NCBI GenBank assembly: GCA_030747675.1
Contig: JASLKH010000086.1
Location: 1 to 12,002 of the forward strand
Direction of reading: 5' to 3'
Length of the DNA: 12,002 nucleotides
From: Candidatus Thalassarchaeaceae archaeon
Lineage (GTDB): Archaea > Thermoplasmatota > Poseidoniia > Poseidoniales > Thalassarchaeaceae
Of the stretch, positions 5,979 to 11,817 are shown piece by piece. Numbering within the stretch: position 1 is the first letter of the stretch; every line of letters starts with the position of its first letter. The notes beneath the pieces were generated by a model that did not search any database, was not told the origin of the DNA, and was given only the letters and a program-made list of their open reading frames with translations. A program made the position numbers and the translations under genes.

Positions 5979-6064
5979 GCCGAGATCGCATAGCCCGGTA
6001 TCGCGGTGGATTCGAAATCCACTGTCCTCGTGACGCGGGAGTTCAAATCTCTCTCTCGGCGCCA
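5979..6064 (+). tRNA. tRNA-Ser, anticodon CGA, intronless, CCA encoded
   Basis: Acceptor stem GCCGAGA/TCTCGGC, discriminator G, then CCA. Anticodon stem GTGGA/TCCAC with loop TT-CGA-AA (6011-6017). Long variable arm (GTC/GAC stem). T arm GGGAG-TTCAAAT-CTCTC. D-loop TAGCCCGGTA. Confidence 0.97.
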
Positions 6065-6099: not shown

Positions 6100-6300
6100 A
6101 TGCAGGTCGGCATCACTCACGAAGGTGAGCGTGTATCACACATATTTGATAATCAGATAACAATATCCGATGTACTTGAGAAAATGGCAATCCCTCCTTC
6201 CACTGTTTTGACAGTAGTTGATGAAAAAATTGTCCCCCATACCTCAATAATTACTGATGACATTGAGATAGAATTAATCATAGTTTCAAGCGGCGGCTAG
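6100..6300 (+). CDS. Ubiquitin-like small archaeal modifier / ThiS-MoaD family sulfur carrier, 66 aa
   Basis: MQVGITHEGERVSHIFDNQITISDVLEKMAIPPSTVLTVVDEKIVPHTSIITDDIEIELIIVSSGG has beta-grasp size and pattern and ends in diglycine. The ATG at 6100 has no SD and is probably leaderless. Confidence 0.88.
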   Translation: MQVGITHEGERVSHIFDNQITISDVLEKMAIPPSTVLTVVDEKIVPHTSIITDDIEIELIIVSSGG

Positions 6301-8129
6301 TCATCACGTCGTTTGAGAATAACCAATCGAGTATTCTTTTGGAATTTAATTTCAGGTCTTCCAAAGAATTCTGAGTACACTCCATTGAGTATTGCAATTT
6401 CATCTCCGGGCTGTATTGAAGGTGCCGAAATGGGTACGGCAAAACTGTAGGCCACAACATCAATTCGTCCTGTTCCGTCTTGCATTGTGAAGCGCCATTT
6501 TGGTTTTCCAGATGCTGTCCGATTCTTTTGCCACGTAGTGTCTCGAATCGTCATTACCCTTCCAACAACGCTTCCAGCTGTGATTAGCCCGACAATGTCT
6601 TCTCCATCCCTTTCAGAAGGTTCAATAATTTCGACTGTGGATTCGTTGTCTAACTCTATCGAGGGGTTGTAATTCCATTCTGTCGGCCTTCCATTTTTGA
6701 TACGAATAAAAACTCCATTTTTGATACGTCGTGAAATAGCCCTTGGTTTGGGGATAAAGCAATTTTTCACTTCAATTCTATCAACACCTTGTTGTAAATA
6801 GAATTTGATTTCAATTCCTCCATCTGAATCTTTGATTGGCGTTAGTAACCCATTAACTTCACCACATAGGTCTACTCTTGTCACTAAATCAGTCGAATTA
6901 GTAATTGGCCATTTCTTCCCTGCATGGTCTAATCTATCTATTTCCGGTAAACTTCCCCTATTTTCTGCTGAAGGACAAATTGTAGCATGATCGCACGATT
7001 TACATCTTGCCAAAGGATCAGGGTCTTCTCCAATATGTGTACCGCCATTTTCGAAAAGTTGTACCTTTGAAGGCGTGGCTGGAAACTCATCTTCAGCTCC
7101 CCTATTTTTGAAAAGAGTATCATACGCTTCACGTAATTCTGAATCTATTTCATTAAGTCGCCTTTCATCGGGTGCTTGGATGACTTTGATTTGAGGTGCG
7201 CCAGCATACCATATACGTAGATCTTCAACACGTTCCGATTCCCCATGCGTTGACCACCATAGCCATGCATAAATTTCCAATTGCTTAACATATCCTGCAG
7301 ACCGGTCATTATTCCCCATTGCGGCTTTCAAATCTATAATGGAAATAGTTCCGTCCCAAGAATAAACAAAGTCATATTCTCCCCAAAACCAGTGTTCAGG
7401 ATGGACCGTTCCAAGTGAGAACGTGGCAGCATCTGGATCAACAAACCAAGGTCTAGCAACCTCCCATGCTTCCATTAGTGTACATCCCCCTTCGCTGACT
7501 GAAGGGTGTGGTTCAGACCACTTGAATGGAAATCCATCAGGTGGTGGCCATTCTGGCCTTTTCCCCTTTCGCCATTCATCAAGGGTAGGGCCACCATTTT
7601 CATCTAAACAGCGTTTGACTTCATCAAGGTGAAAATCAATTGTCGCTAGAGTCATCGATAGCATTTTTTCGTCATCAAGATCTTCACCACTTCCGATCGC
7701 CATTGGGTCATCTTCGAAAGATGCTACGTGCCCATCCTTGACATTAGTGAGGTGGATTGCGGCACGAGAATATGCCCATTCACGTAACGCTTCGATATTT
7801 GTAATGGGTTTTTGAGATGGTAATTTTGGGGCTGGCCACGATTCTACTGAATTTCGGTCCGGCCGACCATCTTCATCAATTGGTGATGATAGAACATCCC
7901 AATTCGCATCACTTGTAACTACTGCGGGGGATTCTCGGAGAACTCTACATACTGTGGACTCAACAATGTGGCCACGCATCATTGCGGGCACACTTGGCCC
8001 TTTCAGATATTCTACTCGCCGTAGGTACCAGGATCTAGGACATCCTTCATATTGGATTAGACTGGTAGCAGATAATCGTTCAAACTTACTAATCAACAGT
8101 GCATCGTCATCTACAATTTGAACAGGCAC
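6297..8129 (-). CDS. PD-(D/E)XK (Cas4/AddB/RecB-like) nuclease with a four-Cys Fe-S staple motif fused to C-terminal OB folds, paralogue B, 610 aa
   Basis: RLSATSLIQYEGCPRSWYL (C30), GHIVE, GEYD (D253), IIDLK (D266, K268), QLEIY and CKSCDHATIC (C376/379/385). The C-terminal region has OB-fold hallmarks (RFTMQDGTGRIDVVAY...IQPGDEIAILNG.....GRPEIKF). GTG start. The stop overlaps the SAMP stop (CTAG, 6297-6300). Confidence 0.85.
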   Translation of the reverse strand: MPVQIVDDDALLISKFERLSATSLIQYEGCPRSWYLRRVEYLKGPSVPAMMRGHIVESTVCRVLRESPAVVTSDANWDVLSSPIDEDGRPDRNSVESWPAPKLPSQKPITNIEALREWAYSRAAIHLTNVKDGHVASFEDDPMAIGSGEDLDDEKMLSMTLATIDFHLDEVKRCLDENGGPTLDEWRKGKRPEWPPPDGFPFKWSEPHPSVSEGGCTLMEAWEVARPWFVDPDAATFSLGTVHPEHWFWGEYDFVYSWDGTISIIDLKAAMGNNDRSAGYVKQLEIYAWLWWSTHGESERVEDLRIWYAGAPQIKVIQAPDERRLNEIDSELREAYDTLFKNRGAEDEFPATPSKVQLFENGGTHIGEDPDPLARCKSCDHATICPSAENRGSLPEIDRLDHAGKKWPITNSTDLVTRVDLCGEVNGLLTPIKDSDGGIEIKFYLQQGVDRIEVKNCFIPKPRAISRRIKNGVFIRIKNGRPTEWNYNPSIELDNESTVEIIEPSERDGEDIVGLITAGSVVGRVMTIRDTTWQKNRTASGKPKWRFTMQDGTGRIDVVAYSFAVPISAPSIQPGDEIAILNGVYSEFFGRPEIKFQKNTRLVILKRRDD

Positions 8130-8160
8130 ATTTCAGGCCTAGAGTTCACTGTCTTTGAAT

Positions 8161-9945
8161 CTATGGAGTATCTTGTTCTTCTTTTGATTCGCGAGGTAAC
8201 GTCTCAATTGTCAGCCGAGTATTTCTTGGGTCAATTCGAAGTTGAGGTGTTCCTTCTCTCCATCCTAATTCTGCAGACATCAAACGAATGTTATCACCAA
8301 TTTGTAAATTATCAAATGATTCACTTCTCCCTGAACCAAAAGCAACAACTTCGACTAATCCAGTTCCATCCCAAACATGCGCCATTGACATTGACCAGTT
8401 TCTTCCAGATGAATTGATACCACTATTGAATCCTCTACTAATGATGGTACCAGCGATATTAGCACGAGTCGGAATCAAACCTAATCGATTAATTTCCATA
8501 TCTTTGGCATCTTCAGAGGAAATAATTTTACTATCGATATCGAGATAGAGTCTAACCATCCCCCTCCATTGTCCTGGAGCAGCATCAACAATGACAAATT
8601 CACCTTTGTAATCATGCAAAATCGGAAATTGCCCGCATCCCATTTCCTCAATTACTGCAGATTTATCTCCAACCGTAATTGCAGCCCCTATCACACTACT
8701 GCCGAAGTGATTAGGGAGTGGACCCCAATGCCCATGCAAATTCCCTTTGACTGTAACTCGGCTTGGGAGGTTGGAAATAGGGGTAAATGGTGCTCCCGCG
8801 GTTGACTTTTTGAATTCAGGAATGAGGCGGTGTAATGGTTGTTCTTCTCCCCCGCGTGGATAATCACAAGTATCTAAACCATGGCAAACTTGACAAGACA
8901 ACCTTCCTTCAATAGTTGGTTTATCGGCATTAAGATTAAAATCATTCAGAGAGGCCAAAGTCATTTGTTGTTGGATTTTGGAAAGTCGGGGGGCCTCATT
9001 TTCAATTTCATCAATTAATCGAGCCTCATGCACGAATCCATCTGCAAGGTGCCAAGATTTCAAGGCGACAACAGGGCCACTTTTTACATGGTCAATAGGT
9101 TTCGAGGGATGATGCCGTGTTTCGATCCACAACCATTGATAAAATCGTAATTGAGTAGCAACTCCTGAGTGGTCACGCCCATGTCCTCGATTAGCTTTGA
9201 TATCGACAATCTGTACATCACCTCTCCAACGGTGTGCCATATCTAATTCGCCTGCAGCCCATCCATCGGGATGAAATAACCGCTGAGCACTGTTGATTCG
9301 GGGATCTTTTGCCCAAGGGCGAGATACTTCCCATGCCTCCCACCAACTGCAAGGCTCACCTTTTGCTTGCCAACCCTCACCTTTTCCTGAGTCCCAGCAT
9401 GGCGCAGGTGTTCCAAAAGGATCACCAATTTCACGAAATATTTCGAGAAATGGCCCCCCATTTTGTTCCAAGCACAATTTCGCTTCATTAATTTGGAGTT
9501 TGATGGCATTTTTCACCATCGCATTCAATTTTTCACGTTTTACATCATCTGGACTCCTTCCTTCTGCTTTCCAAATTATATTATCCCATCCTTCATTCAG
9601 TTGACGTCTAATTTCATCTACAATGGGTTGCATTAATGTCCGCAACCATGTTTGTAATTCATCGAGATTTGTGATGGTTAATATTTCGCCATGTTCACTT
9701 GTGACCCATTGTGTGTTTTTTTCTTTCATCCCATTCTCAGGATGAGGTCGCTCCATCCAAATTGCAGTGGCGGCTTCTTCAACAATATGCCCCAAAATCA
9801 TTTCAGGATGCTTCGGTACTTGCAGCCCCAATCTTCGTGTAAGGAACCAATCTCTCCGACAACGTTCCCATGTGACCATTGAAGAAGCAGACAACCTCCT
9901 TCTACTTCTGGCAAAAACACCAGTTGGTTGTGGTATCACTGGCAT
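8161..9945 (-). CDS. PD-(D/E)XK (Cas4/AddB/RecB-like) nuclease with a four-Cys Fe-S staple motif fused to C-terminal OB folds, paralogue A, 594 aa
   Basis: RLSASSMVTWERCRRDWFL (C29), GHIVE, GELD (D235), IVDIK (D248, K250), QLRFY and CQVCHGLDTC (C351/354/360). The C-terminal OB fold reads AHVWDGTGLVEVVAFG...LQIGDNIRL......EGTPQLRI. The start is set at ATG 9945 because it gives MPV like the paralogue and follows GAGTG. Confidence 0.85.
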   Translation of the reverse strand: MPVIPQPTGVFARSRRRLSASSMVTWERCRRDWFLTRRLGLQVPKHPEMILGHIVEEAATAIWMERPHPENGMKEKNTQWVTSEHGEILTITNLDELQTWLRTLMQPIVDEIRRQLNEGWDNIIWKAEGRSPDDVKREKLNAMVKNAIKLQINEAKLCLEQNGGPFLEIFREIGDPFGTPAPCWDSGKGEGWQAKGEPCSWWEAWEVSRPWAKDPRINSAQRLFHPDGWAAGELDMAHRWRGDVQIVDIKANRGHGRDHSGVATQLRFYQWLWIETRHHPSKPIDHVKSGPVVALKSWHLADGFVHEARLIDEIENEAPRLSKIQQQMTLASLNDFNLNADKPTIEGRLSCQVCHGLDTCDYPRGGEEQPLHRLIPEFKKSTAGAPFTPISNLPSRVTVKGNLHGHWGPLPNHFGSSVIGAAITVGDKSAVIEEMGCGQFPILHDYKGEFVIVDAAPGQWRGMVRLYLDIDSKIISSEDAKDMEINRLGLIPTRANIAGTIISRGFNSGINSSGRNWSMSMAHVWDGTGLVEVVAFGSGRSESFDNLQIGDNIRLMSAELGWREGTPQLRIDPRNTRLTIETLPRESKEEQDTP

Positions 9946-9954
9946 AATAAACAC

Positions 9955-11733
9955 TCATTCTGCATAGAAATATTCTCCTCTTGATTTTTGCTCTCGATCT
10001 TTCCTACTATCGTGTTTGTTGATACGTGGCCTATGGCTATCATGATCGCGTCGGAAGGTGATGCCAACTTGACTTAGAAAACGATTCATTCCTTTTCGGA
10101 GAGGCAGTGGCCCAACTGCTGAACCATTCTCTCCACCAACACCATCAAAAACAAGTAAGGAATCACTTACAATGTCTATGAAATAGATATCGTGATCGAT
10201 TACCATTGCTGCCTTCTCATTGACTTCCATTGTTTTCCTGATTGCTTTCGCTGCCTCCATTCTCGCATTCGCATCTAGGTGTGCACTTGGTTCATCTAGC
10301 AAGTATAGATCAGCATCTTTACCCAGGCAAATTGCAATACTAACTGCTTGTAATTCTCCACCTGATAATTTTCTAACATCTTGTTCTAGTAATTTGTCAA
10401 CTTGAAGTGGCCGAATCACAGTGGTGTGGAATTCACCTTTTCTCCATTTCGTTCCAATTTCACAATCGAGCCATAGGCGAACAGTCCCTTCAAAATCTGA
10501 TCTAACATGCTGCGGTTTGTAGGATATCTTCGCTTCCATAGTACACCAACCGGCATCCATTTCGATTTCACCAGCAACCATTTTGACCATGGTGGTTTTA
10601 CCTGTAGCATTAGGGCCTACAACACCTACTACCTCGGAACTGTGCACTTTACCAGTATCTGTTTTGAGTTGGAATGTACCTAATTTCTTCTCCAAGTCCC
10701 CCCATTCGAGAATTGGCTCCCCAATCTCTTCACCTCGCATTCTCCCCCGAAGGAACTGAATTGGTTTATCTCTAATTCGAATATTTTCTTGCTCTAAGAA
10801 ACCATCTAAGTATGCATTTATGGCTGTACGAGCGGGGCGTGGTGGCGTAAAAATTCCATATGCTGCTCGTTCGCCATACACGACGTGTATGAGGTCGCAC
10901 AAAACATCTAAAATTGCTAAATCATGCTCAATAACAATTACTCTTTTACCGGATTCAGATAATTTTTGGATAATTCTAACCATTCGCATTCTTTCGTAAA
11001 TGTCAAGATATGATGAAGGTTCATCAAAGAAGTATACATCAGCATCTTTCAGCAATGTTGCAGCAATTGCCACTCGTTGCAATTCACCACCTGATAATTC
11101 TGGTAAATTCCTTTCAAACAAATGGTTGATTGCTAATGCTTCAGCAGTTTCTTCAATGACTCCTCTTTGATCTACGCGTTGCAGCAATGCGCTTACCTTT
11201 CCATCGAAGGCACGAGGGATTTTGTCTACATATTGGGGTTTTACAGCTATACGGACACCTGAATCAGCGACTGTTGACATGAAATCACGAAGTTCTCCTC
11301 GTGGAAATGTTTCAATGATATCTTCCCATGGCCTTTCTCCCGATAACCATTCACCCAGATTGGGGCGAATTGTTCCTGAAAGGAGGTTTATTGCAGTTGA
11401 TTTCCCCATTCCATTCGCACCAAGAATACCTACAACTTGTTCTTCTCTTGGAACTGGTAATCTAAATAATCTAAACCCATTTTCCCCATAACGATGAATC
11501 ATATCTGTTTCCAGTTCGGATGGTAGGTTTGTAATTACTAGTGCATCAAATGGACATTTGTTTATGCAGATTCCACATCCTATACACAATGGTTCCGAGA
11601 TAATGGGTTTACCGTTTCCTTCATGCATCACAATACACTCAATCCCATTCCTAACAGGTGGACAAAATGATTGACATTCATCATTACATTTCTTTGGTTG
11701 ACAACGGTCTTCCAAAAGAACTGCAACTCGCAT
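9955..11733 (-). CDS. abce1: Ribosome recycling ATPase ABCE1 / RNase L inhibitor (RLI), 592 aa
   Basis: N-terminal two-cluster Fe-S domain (CQPKKCNDECQSFCP; CIGCGICINKCP). There are two NBDs, with Walker A GANGMGKS and GPNATGKT, signature LSGGELQ twice, and Walker B FFDEPS and LLDEPS. The C-terminus has ITFRRD...RPRINK. SD GGAGGGAG supports the ATG at 11733. Confidence 0.98.
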   Translation of the reverse strand: MRVAVLLEDRCQPKKCNDECQSFCPPVRNGIECIVMHEGNGKPIISEPLCIGCGICINKCPFDALVITNLPSELETDMIHRYGENGFRLFRLPVPREEQVVGILGANGMGKSTAINLLSGTIRPNLGEWLSGERPWEDIIETFPRGELRDFMSTVADSGVRIAVKPQYVDKIPRAFDGKVSALLQRVDQRGVIEETAEALAINHLFERNLPELSGGELQRVAIAATLLKDADVYFFDEPSSYLDIYERMRMVRIIQKLSESGKRVIVIEHDLAILDVLCDLIHVVYGERAAYGIFTPPRPARTAINAYLDGFLEQENIRIRDKPIQFLRGRMRGEEIGEPILEWGDLEKKLGTFQLKTDTGKVHSSEVVGVVGPNATGKTTMVKMVAGEIEMDAGWCTMEAKISYKPQHVRSDFEGTVRLWLDCEIGTKWRKGEFHTTVIRPLQVDKLLEQDVRKLSGGELQAVSIAICLGKDADLYLLDEPSAHLDANARMEAAKAIRKTMEVNEKAAMVIDHDIYFIDIVSDSLLVFDGVGGENGSAVGPLPLRKGMNRFLSQVGITFRRDHDSHRPRINKHDSRKDREQKSRGEYFYAE

Positions 11734-11817
11734 TGAATCTCCCTCCTGTTTGCTTCTTGACAAATTCCGTTCTTAATCGATGCGTGACTCACTAAACGAG
11801 AGTCCGCGTTTTTACAC

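Follow-up and report, generated by a model that had tools for sequence, protein, structure and literature searches.

A conserved pair of predicted iron-sulfur nucleases with fused RPA-like OB modules in the core genome of the marine archaeal order Poseidoniales

Dna2 and Exo5 are eukaryotic iron-sulfur (Fe-S) nucleases of the PD-(D/E)XK fold that act on single-stranded DNA (ssDNA) ends and flaps alongside OB-fold binders, namely RPA and, in the case of Dna2, its own OB and beta-barrel domains. Cas4, the nuclease of CRISPR adaptation, displays the same Fe-S PD-(D/E)XK ssDNA nuclease fold, while the AddAB and AdnAB machines feature two paralogous nucleases of the RecB-family fold that are encoded side by side. 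A further representative, ACE1, which has a Cas4-family PD-(D/E)XK fold, has been experimentally shown to be an ssDNA endonuclease (PMC12094033). Here we describe two adjacent genes, termed A and B, from a stretch of 12,002 nucleotides (hereafter the window) of a Candidatus Thalassarchaeaceae archaeon of the order Poseidoniales (assembly GCA_030747675.1, contig JASLKH010000086.1), whose products each combine a nuclease domain of this class with a C-terminal tandem of RPA-like OB folds. The reading that we favor, as probable rather than secure, is that they are two self-contained, subfunctionalized housekeeping nucleases predicted to be directed at ssDNA, a proposal founded on sequence comparisons, structure models and analogy with the above enzymes. 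While the component domains of A and B are individually well known, their fusion architecture is uncharacterized: our searches of Pfam, NCBIfam and the PDB recovered no entry that describes the family beyond the generic superfamily, literature searches recovered no paper on it or on AddAB in marine Group II (MGII) archaea, and homologs carry the database labels “PD-(D/E)XK nuclease family protein” or “hypothetical”. An initial reading of the window from its letters and open reading frames (the sequence-only reading) had likewise known of no characterized equivalent.

Domain architecture of A and B

The genes A (8161..9945, minus strand, 594 aa) and B (6297..8129, minus strand, 610 aa, GTG start) are separated by a spacer of 31 nt (8130..8160, minus strand). 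A BLASTP comparison aligns their products over the full length (26% identity, E 5e-40), a similarity that chance does not explain and that bears out the sequence-only reading in its proposal that they are collinear, end-to-end paralogs. Each of the motif pairs on which that proposal was built was recovered, namely GHIVE, NGGP, EAWEV.RPW, GE[LY]D, I[VI]D[IL]KA, QLxxY, CxxCx5C, DGTG and NTRL, and both proteins possess a further N-terminal cysteine, C32 in A and C30 in B (numbering of P0001 and P0002). The absence of a helicase domain from either protein, also part of that reading, is upheld by Pfam.

The N-terminal regions of A (P0001 residues 4-378; 8821..9945, minus strand, as are all the A and B features below) and B (residues 1-392; 6954..8129) match the Pfam model PDDEXK_1 (PF12705) with 36.8 and 54.2 bits, respectively, against its curated cut-off of 22 bits, and both present the motif series E...D...(D/E)xK...QxxxY, which places them in this family. 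Motif I (GHIVE) lies at 9778-9792 in A and 7959-7973 in B; motif II is GELD (9241-9252) in A and GEYD (7371-7382) in B; motif III is IVDIKA (9193-9210) and IIDLKA (7323-7340); and the final motif is QLRFY (9139-9153) and QLEIY (7269-7283). The residues singled out for mutation by the sequence-only reading, D235/K250 of A (counted from the ATG) and D253/K268 of B, are indeed those of motifs II and III. In an alignment of 47 sequences (28 of the B family and 19 of the A family), G53 and E57 of motif I, E251 and D253 of motif II, D266 and K268 of motif III, and Q283 and Y287 of QxxxY (all in B numbering) are invariant, so that the earlier claim of intact catalytic residues in both copies extends to 47/47 sequences.

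Between motifs I and II both proteins bear a family-specific, helical and Trp-rich insertion of ~180 residues. It contains NGGP (9451-9462 in A; 7587-7598 in B) and a Trp-rich block, EAWExxRPW..DP, that is invariant in the A and B families (EAWEVSRPW at 9313-9339 in A; EAWEVARPW at 7446-7472 in B). Further, A and B display the 1+3 cysteine arrangement typical of the Fe-S “staple” nucleases, in which an N-terminal cysteine is combined with a CxxCx5C motif: in A the candidate fourth ligand C32 (9859-9861) accompanies C354, C357 and C363 (motif positions 8866..8895), and in B the N-terminal partner C30 (8040-8042) accompanies C376, C379 and C385 (6975..7004). By analogy with the staple enzymes, this set is expected to bind a 4Fe-4S cluster in both proteins. 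All four cysteines are kept in 28/28 B-family sequences. Among the 19 A-family sequences, two (P0176 and P0182) lack all four, having lost the N-terminal cysteine and the CxxCx5C block together, six of Poseidoniaceae type (P0186, P0190, P0204, P0205, P0226 and P0219) lack the last cysteine, and one is gapped at the N-terminal cysteine column. Thus, the earlier statement that both copies keep all four cysteines holds for the window and fails across the A family. The Cys-losing A lineages, which are mostly of Poseidoniaceae type, keep every catalytic residue and could serve as a natural experiment on the need for the cluster in activity. We also observed a fifth cysteine, C174 in B (7608-7610) and C161 in A (9472-9474), in the sequence C-L-x-x-N-G-G-P of the insertion helix; it lies outside the canonical 1+3 set and is invariant in 47/47 A and B sequences, but most of the bacterial relatives described below lack it.

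The C-terminal 200 residues of both proteins constitute two OB folds, which by sequence and structure are closest to the DNA-binding domains of RPA, such as those of archaeal RPA (PDB 8aa9 and 3e0e). In A this module spans P0001 residues ~387-589 (8188..8796), and the region shows a weak sequence match to the RPA OB domain of 8aa9 (E 0.004); such weak C-terminal matches of A were the sole returns of the PDB sequence search, which found none for either nuclease domain. In B the module spans residues ~399-606 (6312..6935) and matches PF01336 with 33.1 bits. AlphaFold2 models computed from the family alignments have a predicted local distance difference test (pLDDT) value of 92 and a predicted template modeling score (pTM) of 0.88 for B, and a pLDDT of 84 and a pTM of 0.84 for A, the latter being of low confidence only around the cysteine cluster. 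Both proteins are modeled as compact bodies with the OB domains packed on the nuclease. For fold comparisons we used VIA-align, an exhaustive structural comparison, and Foldseek. In the former, the A module is closest to the OB of Pyrococcus abyssi Rpa1 (Z 11.4) and to Teb1 (Z 11.1); in the latter, the B module recovers Teb1 AB, RPA70 DBD-A/B, POT1 and HIN200 (E 1e-7 to 1e-9).

The best structural match of both nuclease domains is ACE1: VIA-align superimposes it on residues 1-~390 of B with Z 16.0 and a root-mean-square deviation of 3.3 over 238 residues, and on the A domain with Z 12.3. However, identity is only 10-16%, and ACE1 is a protein of 266 aa devoid of OB domains that is bound to a long-A prokaryotic Argonaute in defense, whereas A and B have the ~180-residue insertion and the tandem OB, lack an Argonaute neighbor and belong to the core genome. 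Next come the RecB-family nucleases of the resection machines (PDB 3u44, 6ppu and 9np6). The two AdnAB nuclease domains score Z 14.4 and 12.9 against B and up to Z 12.1 against A (Z 11.5-14.4 overall), and AddB (3u44_B), which shares with A and B the 1+3 Fe-S staple arrangement, scores Z 12.8 against B and 9.1 against A. Like the nucleases of these machines, A and B are paralogs encoded side by side, but Pfam detects in them no SF1 (UvrD-like) helicase, ATPase or P-loop, and they do not belong with AddAB or AdnAB. Cas4 (PDB 8d3l, 7mi4 and 4ic1) yields Z 9-11 (11.0 for B) together with weak sequence matches; nevertheless, the Cas4 model TIGR00372 gives only 16.4 bits against a cut-off of 65, the A and B proteins are ~3 times longer and carry OB domains, and there is no CRISPR context (see below for cas1 in five genomes), which sets them outside the Cas4 family.

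We see Dna2 and Exo5 (PDB 5ean and 7lw7) as the best functional analogy. Dna2 scores Z 10.6 against B and 11.3 against A, and Exo5 Z 8.8-9.7, the highest being with B. This likeness is structural only, as neither the Dna2 model (PF08696) nor an Exo5 model of Pfam matches A or B, which are not members of the Dna2 family; moreover, A and B differ from these enzymes in lacking a helicase and in having the RPA-like tandem OB fused in cis at the C-terminus. Conversely, they differ from RPA in that the OB domains are fused to a nuclease and in lacking a Rep_fac-A_C or zinc-finger domain, and the RPA family models NF006255 and NF005554 give just 11.3 and 14.0 bits against cut-offs above 440, so that A and B are not RPA family members. 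PADLOC and PHROGs return only weak matches to Cas4, DruK and exonucleases, and no PADLOC system was matched.

The two paralogs are constrained in different parts. Between the two main families of the order, the A proteins are 36.7% identical in the nuclease and 40.4% in the OB module, and the B proteins 42.3% in the nuclease and 20.3% in the OB module; correspondingly, the OB module has many invariant residues in the A family and few in the B family. Given that constraint in B falls on the Fe-S nuclease and in A on the OB module, with both active sites intact, we consider the two copies to have specialized.

Phyletic distribution, duplication and loss

Few archaea of the surface ocean are as abundant as the Poseidoniales (marine Group II), which are uncultured and whose DNA metabolism is known only from sequence. 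B-type genes were detected in 79/81 Poseidoniales genomes sampled, the two misses being 87-88% complete. In a phylum sample of 301 genomes the family was found in this order only, with 0/8 genomes of the sister order and none from other families; two genomes outside it (G152 and G186) gave weak matches to multi-OB, RPA-like proteins, which align over the OB region only and were rejected as nuclease relatives. When 1.84 billion representative proteins were searched with the family profile, 84 sequences scored at E<1e-30, mostly fragments on short contigs, and RPA-type multi-OB proteins were also retrieved (E about 1e-18 to 1e-26). The same search brought up rare relatives from bacteria, ~430-477 aa in length, which share the nuclease, the type of insertion and the 1+3 cysteines, but have a single C-terminal OB. 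They come from marine metagenome-assembled genomes (P0300, P0303, P0331 and P0378, from a proteobacterium, a Planctomycetia bacterium and an uncultured bacterium; loci L027, L028 and L029), in which they are single genes amid unrelated housekeeping genes; one such neighborhood, with peptidase M28 and Ppx/GppA genes, is uninformative. These single-OB proteins may represent the ancestral architecture or point to transfer between MGII archaea and marine bacteria.

When the bacterial relatives are used to root a maximum-likelihood tree, A and B form reciprocal clades (support of 100 and 94 in the Shimodaira–Hasegawa-like approximate likelihood-ratio test, SH-aLRT). As each clade contains all three Poseidoniales families sampled, the duplication predates the sampled radiation of the order, in line with the sequence-only reading, which had judged it old from the divergence of the two copies. 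The locus has been maintained across the same range: in 9/9 A-bearing loci examined, from three families, the order is ABCE1, A and B, followed by the convergent PAC2-Nop10-eIF2alpha-L44e genes with purF further on, and the co-orientation of A and B and the ~30-nt spacer between them are likewise kept in 9/9.

A single open reading frame (ORF) was found in 36 genomes from seven genera of Thalassarchaeaceae in searches with both B and A. It is ~40% identical to B and ~30% to A, and nests in the B clade (SH-aLRT 99). In five of these B-only genomes, each at least 91% complete, a profile of the A family matched nothing other than the B ORF, and A was never found without B in any genome searched with both. 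The B-only genomes are small (1.2-1.7 Mb) and include G027, assembled in one contig, and G023, in five. In them B still adjoins PAC2, ABCE1 lies elsewhere and A is gone; when a remnant of A was sought beside the relocated ABCE1 of G027, GrpE was found there instead. The simplest reading of this pattern of gene content is that A would have been lost once, secondarily, in the streamlined Thalassarchaeaceae. A separate observation concerns the B-only genome G019 (92% complete), where B is split into ORFs of 92, 341 and 228 aa (C26:43551-45305); a pseudogenizing frameshift or a fault in the assembly may account for this.

Gene starts and neighbors in the window

The minus strand of the window bears three successive long ORFs, for ABCE1/RLI, A and B. 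The ABCE1 gene (9955..11763, minus strand; Fer4_RLI and two ABC_tran domains in Pfam) has a probable ATG at 11733 and a TGA stop at 9955-9957; A follows directly on the same strand, with 9 nt separating this TGA from the ATG of A. The ORF of A in full covers 8161-9954 and begins with GTG; however, we place its start at the ATG at 9945 because the N-terminal MPV is conserved in homologs, and its stop (TAG) is at 8161-8163. For the same reason we disfavor the publicly annotated A (P0123, 556 aa), which starts ~40 codons late (window 9832-9954), such that the block MPV...RLSASS with Cys32, a candidate Fe-S ligand, falls upstream of its start.

The other neighbors are PAC2, Nop10, eIF2alpha, L44e, purF and a tRNA-Ser. 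There is no cas gene, CRISPR array, helicase or integrase in the window, as was noted from the sequence at the outset, and its GC content shows no break. The tRNA-Ser(CGA) gene (5979-6064, plus strand) is situated between PAC2 and a small ORF of 66 aa (6100-6300, plus strand) that ends in ...VSSGG* and has a weak match to SAMP2 (E 0.007, under the cut-off). This ORF is convergent with B, the stop codons of the two overlapping, and the gene for the PAC2 proteasome chaperone is nearby; from its sequence, it probably codes for a ubiquitin-like small archaeal modifier or a ThiS/MoaD-type protein.

Proposed roles and the DNA-processing background of the order

NurA is the canonical resection nuclease of archaea. 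The NurA model (PF09376) found no match in 41/41 Poseidoniales genomes (completeness of 90% or more in 37), while detecting the protein in 4/4 archaeal control genomes and 36/84 other Thermoplasmatota. Instead, the Poseidoniales genomes examined code for an adjacent pair comprising an AddB-like protein of ~1200 aa with a C-terminal PDDEXK_1 domain and an AddA-like protein of ~1650 aa, in which a UvrD helicase (matching UvrD-helicase and UvrD_C) is combined with PDDEXK_1. Such pairs are found, for instance, in G003 (C1, ~319.5-328.2 kb; L021 3499-7224 and 7221-12161) and in the B-only genome G027 (L022 3869-7483 and 7480-12528), and the AddA-like gene is present in 41/41 genomes, including that of the window itself (G000:C14:37472-42058). 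This suggests, at the level of gene content, that the HerA-NurA route of resection may have been replaced in the Poseidoniales by an AddAB-type machine. Models of the HerA HAS-barrel, the Rad50 zinc hook and Rep_fac-A_C gave no matches, but missed several positive-control archaea too, and we give these negatives no weight. Cas1 (PF01867) was not found in the five genomes searched (G000, G003, G027, G002 and G012), while controls matched. A third standalone PDDEXK_1 paralog of 387-480 aa (L020 2833-3996; L019 2577-4019), which matches the Pfam model over its full length, was set aside as it shows no particular affinity to either A or B.

Against this background, we propose that each of A and B would be an individually complete enzyme, in which a nuclease of the Cas4/AddB/AdnAB class, its insertion and an RPA-derived tandem OB are joined in one compact body. 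The tandem OB would grip ssDNA and present the strand to the metal-dependent active site, while the insertion and the Fe-S lobe would arch over it, by analogy with Dna2, Exo5 and AddB; such an enzyme would trim ssDNA at ends, flaps or gaps during replication or repair and serve housekeeping rather than defense. B, with its invariant nuclease and Fe-S cysteines and its presence in 79/81 genomes of the order, would be the indispensable core enzyme. A would be an accessory copy, co-transcribed with ABCE1 and always directly behind it, with a strongly constrained OB module and dispensable Fe-S cysteines. Several points weigh against this proposal. The substrate, polarity and Fe-S binding of both proteins are predicted from folds and motifs. 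The order-wide ABCE1-A-B arrangement with its spacers of 9 and 31 nt would also be in keeping with a complex or with a connection to translation or RNA. That A has kept its catalytic residues for as long as B and is never found without it is compatible with A depending on B. Finally, the presence of an AddAB-like machine means that a resection role is not needed.

The sequence-only reading had instead suggested a helicase-less heterodimer to which A and B each contribute an active site (one for each strand or polarity, for instance), at work in repair, resection or ssDNA processing. Taken as an obligate complex, we regard this as unlikely. Several of the above observations are what one would expect of such a complex: the adjacent, co-oriented genes with their ~30-nt spacer in 9/9 A-bearing loci of three families, the retention of all catalytic residues by both copies since a duplication older than those families, the failure to find A without B, and the complementary constraint on the A OB module and the B nuclease, which could signify a division of labor within it. 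However, the survey of homologs that the same reading called for gave a divided result on single or patchy copies, which it had named as counting against the proposal: the pair is conserved in three families of the order, yet seven Thalassarchaeaceae genera (36 genomes, the closed, one-contig G027 among them) have B without A, with the A profile finding nothing else in the five genomes so searched, and the nearest relatives outside MGII are likewise single genes. The presumed subunits thus do not strictly co-occur, and, with many relatives keeping only one copy, the obligate two-subunit machine is not supported; B appears from gene content to be sufficient on its own in many lineages. Each protein is, moreover, modeled as a self-sufficient nuclease-plus-OB unit. 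The analogy to AddAB that accompanied the heterodimer proposal is also weakened because an actual AddAB-like helicase and two-nuclease pair is encoded elsewhere in the same genomes (the AddA-like gene in 41/41); with that resection machine already present, A and B need not fill its role. A complex prediction that paired A residues 4-597 with B residues 1-396 only gave an ipSAE of 0.00 in both runs and counts neither for nor against binding. A physical A-B complex is possible and is not required by our preferred reading of two self-contained enzymes.

The linkage to ABCE1 raises the alternative of an RNA rather than a DNA substrate, for both proteins or at least for A, in an ABCE1-coupled pathway (ribosome recycling or mRNA surveillance, for example). 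In 9/9 A-bearing loci the gene immediately before A, and in the same orientation, is ABCE1, the B-only genera combine a relocated ABCE1 (followed by GrpE in G027) with the loss of A, and the OB domains also match the type that binds anticodons in aminoacyl-tRNA synthetases (PF01336). Nonetheless, this seems to us distinctly improbable: to our knowledge, all characterized Fe-S nucleases of the Cas4/AddB/Dna2/Exo5/ACE1 class act on DNA, the best OB relatives by sequence are archaeal RPAs, the B-only genera show no linkage between B and ABCE1, and archaeal operons often mix unrelated housekeeping genes. More improbable still is a defense or mobile-element module in which A and B would serve as solo Cas4-like nucleases against invading DNA. 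The weak resemblance to Cas4, DruK and a family of phage exonucleases, the standing of their best structural match, ACE1, as a defense accessory, and the sporadic occurrence among marine bacteria that are unrelated to one another, perhaps a result of horizontal transfer, would be in keeping with it; but a near-universal presence across the order, fixed at one core locus that ABCE1 and PAC2-Nop10-eIF2alpha-L44e flank, a gene tree that follows the family structure, and the failure to find cas1 (five genomes), any PADLOC system or a GC break all argue against it. A bolder form of the heterodimer proposal combines several of these elements, with A and B forming a helicase-independent nuclease of two active sites, each with its own RPA-like ssDNA clamp, that would be coupled transcriptionally, and perhaps functionally, to ABCE1 and reduced to B alone in the streamlined lineages. 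We consider this unlikely; if true, it would amount to a previously unknown nucleic-acid processing complex specific to the most abundant planktonic Euryarchaeota of the ocean.

In conclusion, the core genome of the Poseidoniales contains a conserved pair of predicted Fe-S nucleases with built-in RPA-like modules, an architecture without a characterized representative. What is new here are the B-only lineages, the asymmetry between A and B, the linkage to ABCE1, the single-OB bacterial relatives and the background of an AddAB-like machine without detectable NurA. A nuclease with a fused tandem OB would provide a compact natural model for the cooperation of Dna2- and Exo5-type enzymes with RPA, and the natural loss of A in the streamlined genera furnishes a ready comparison for the role of each copy. 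Taken together, the A/B pair, the failure to find NurA and the presence of AddAB-like proteins point to a DNA-end-processing toolkit in these archaea that differs from the textbook archaeal one.

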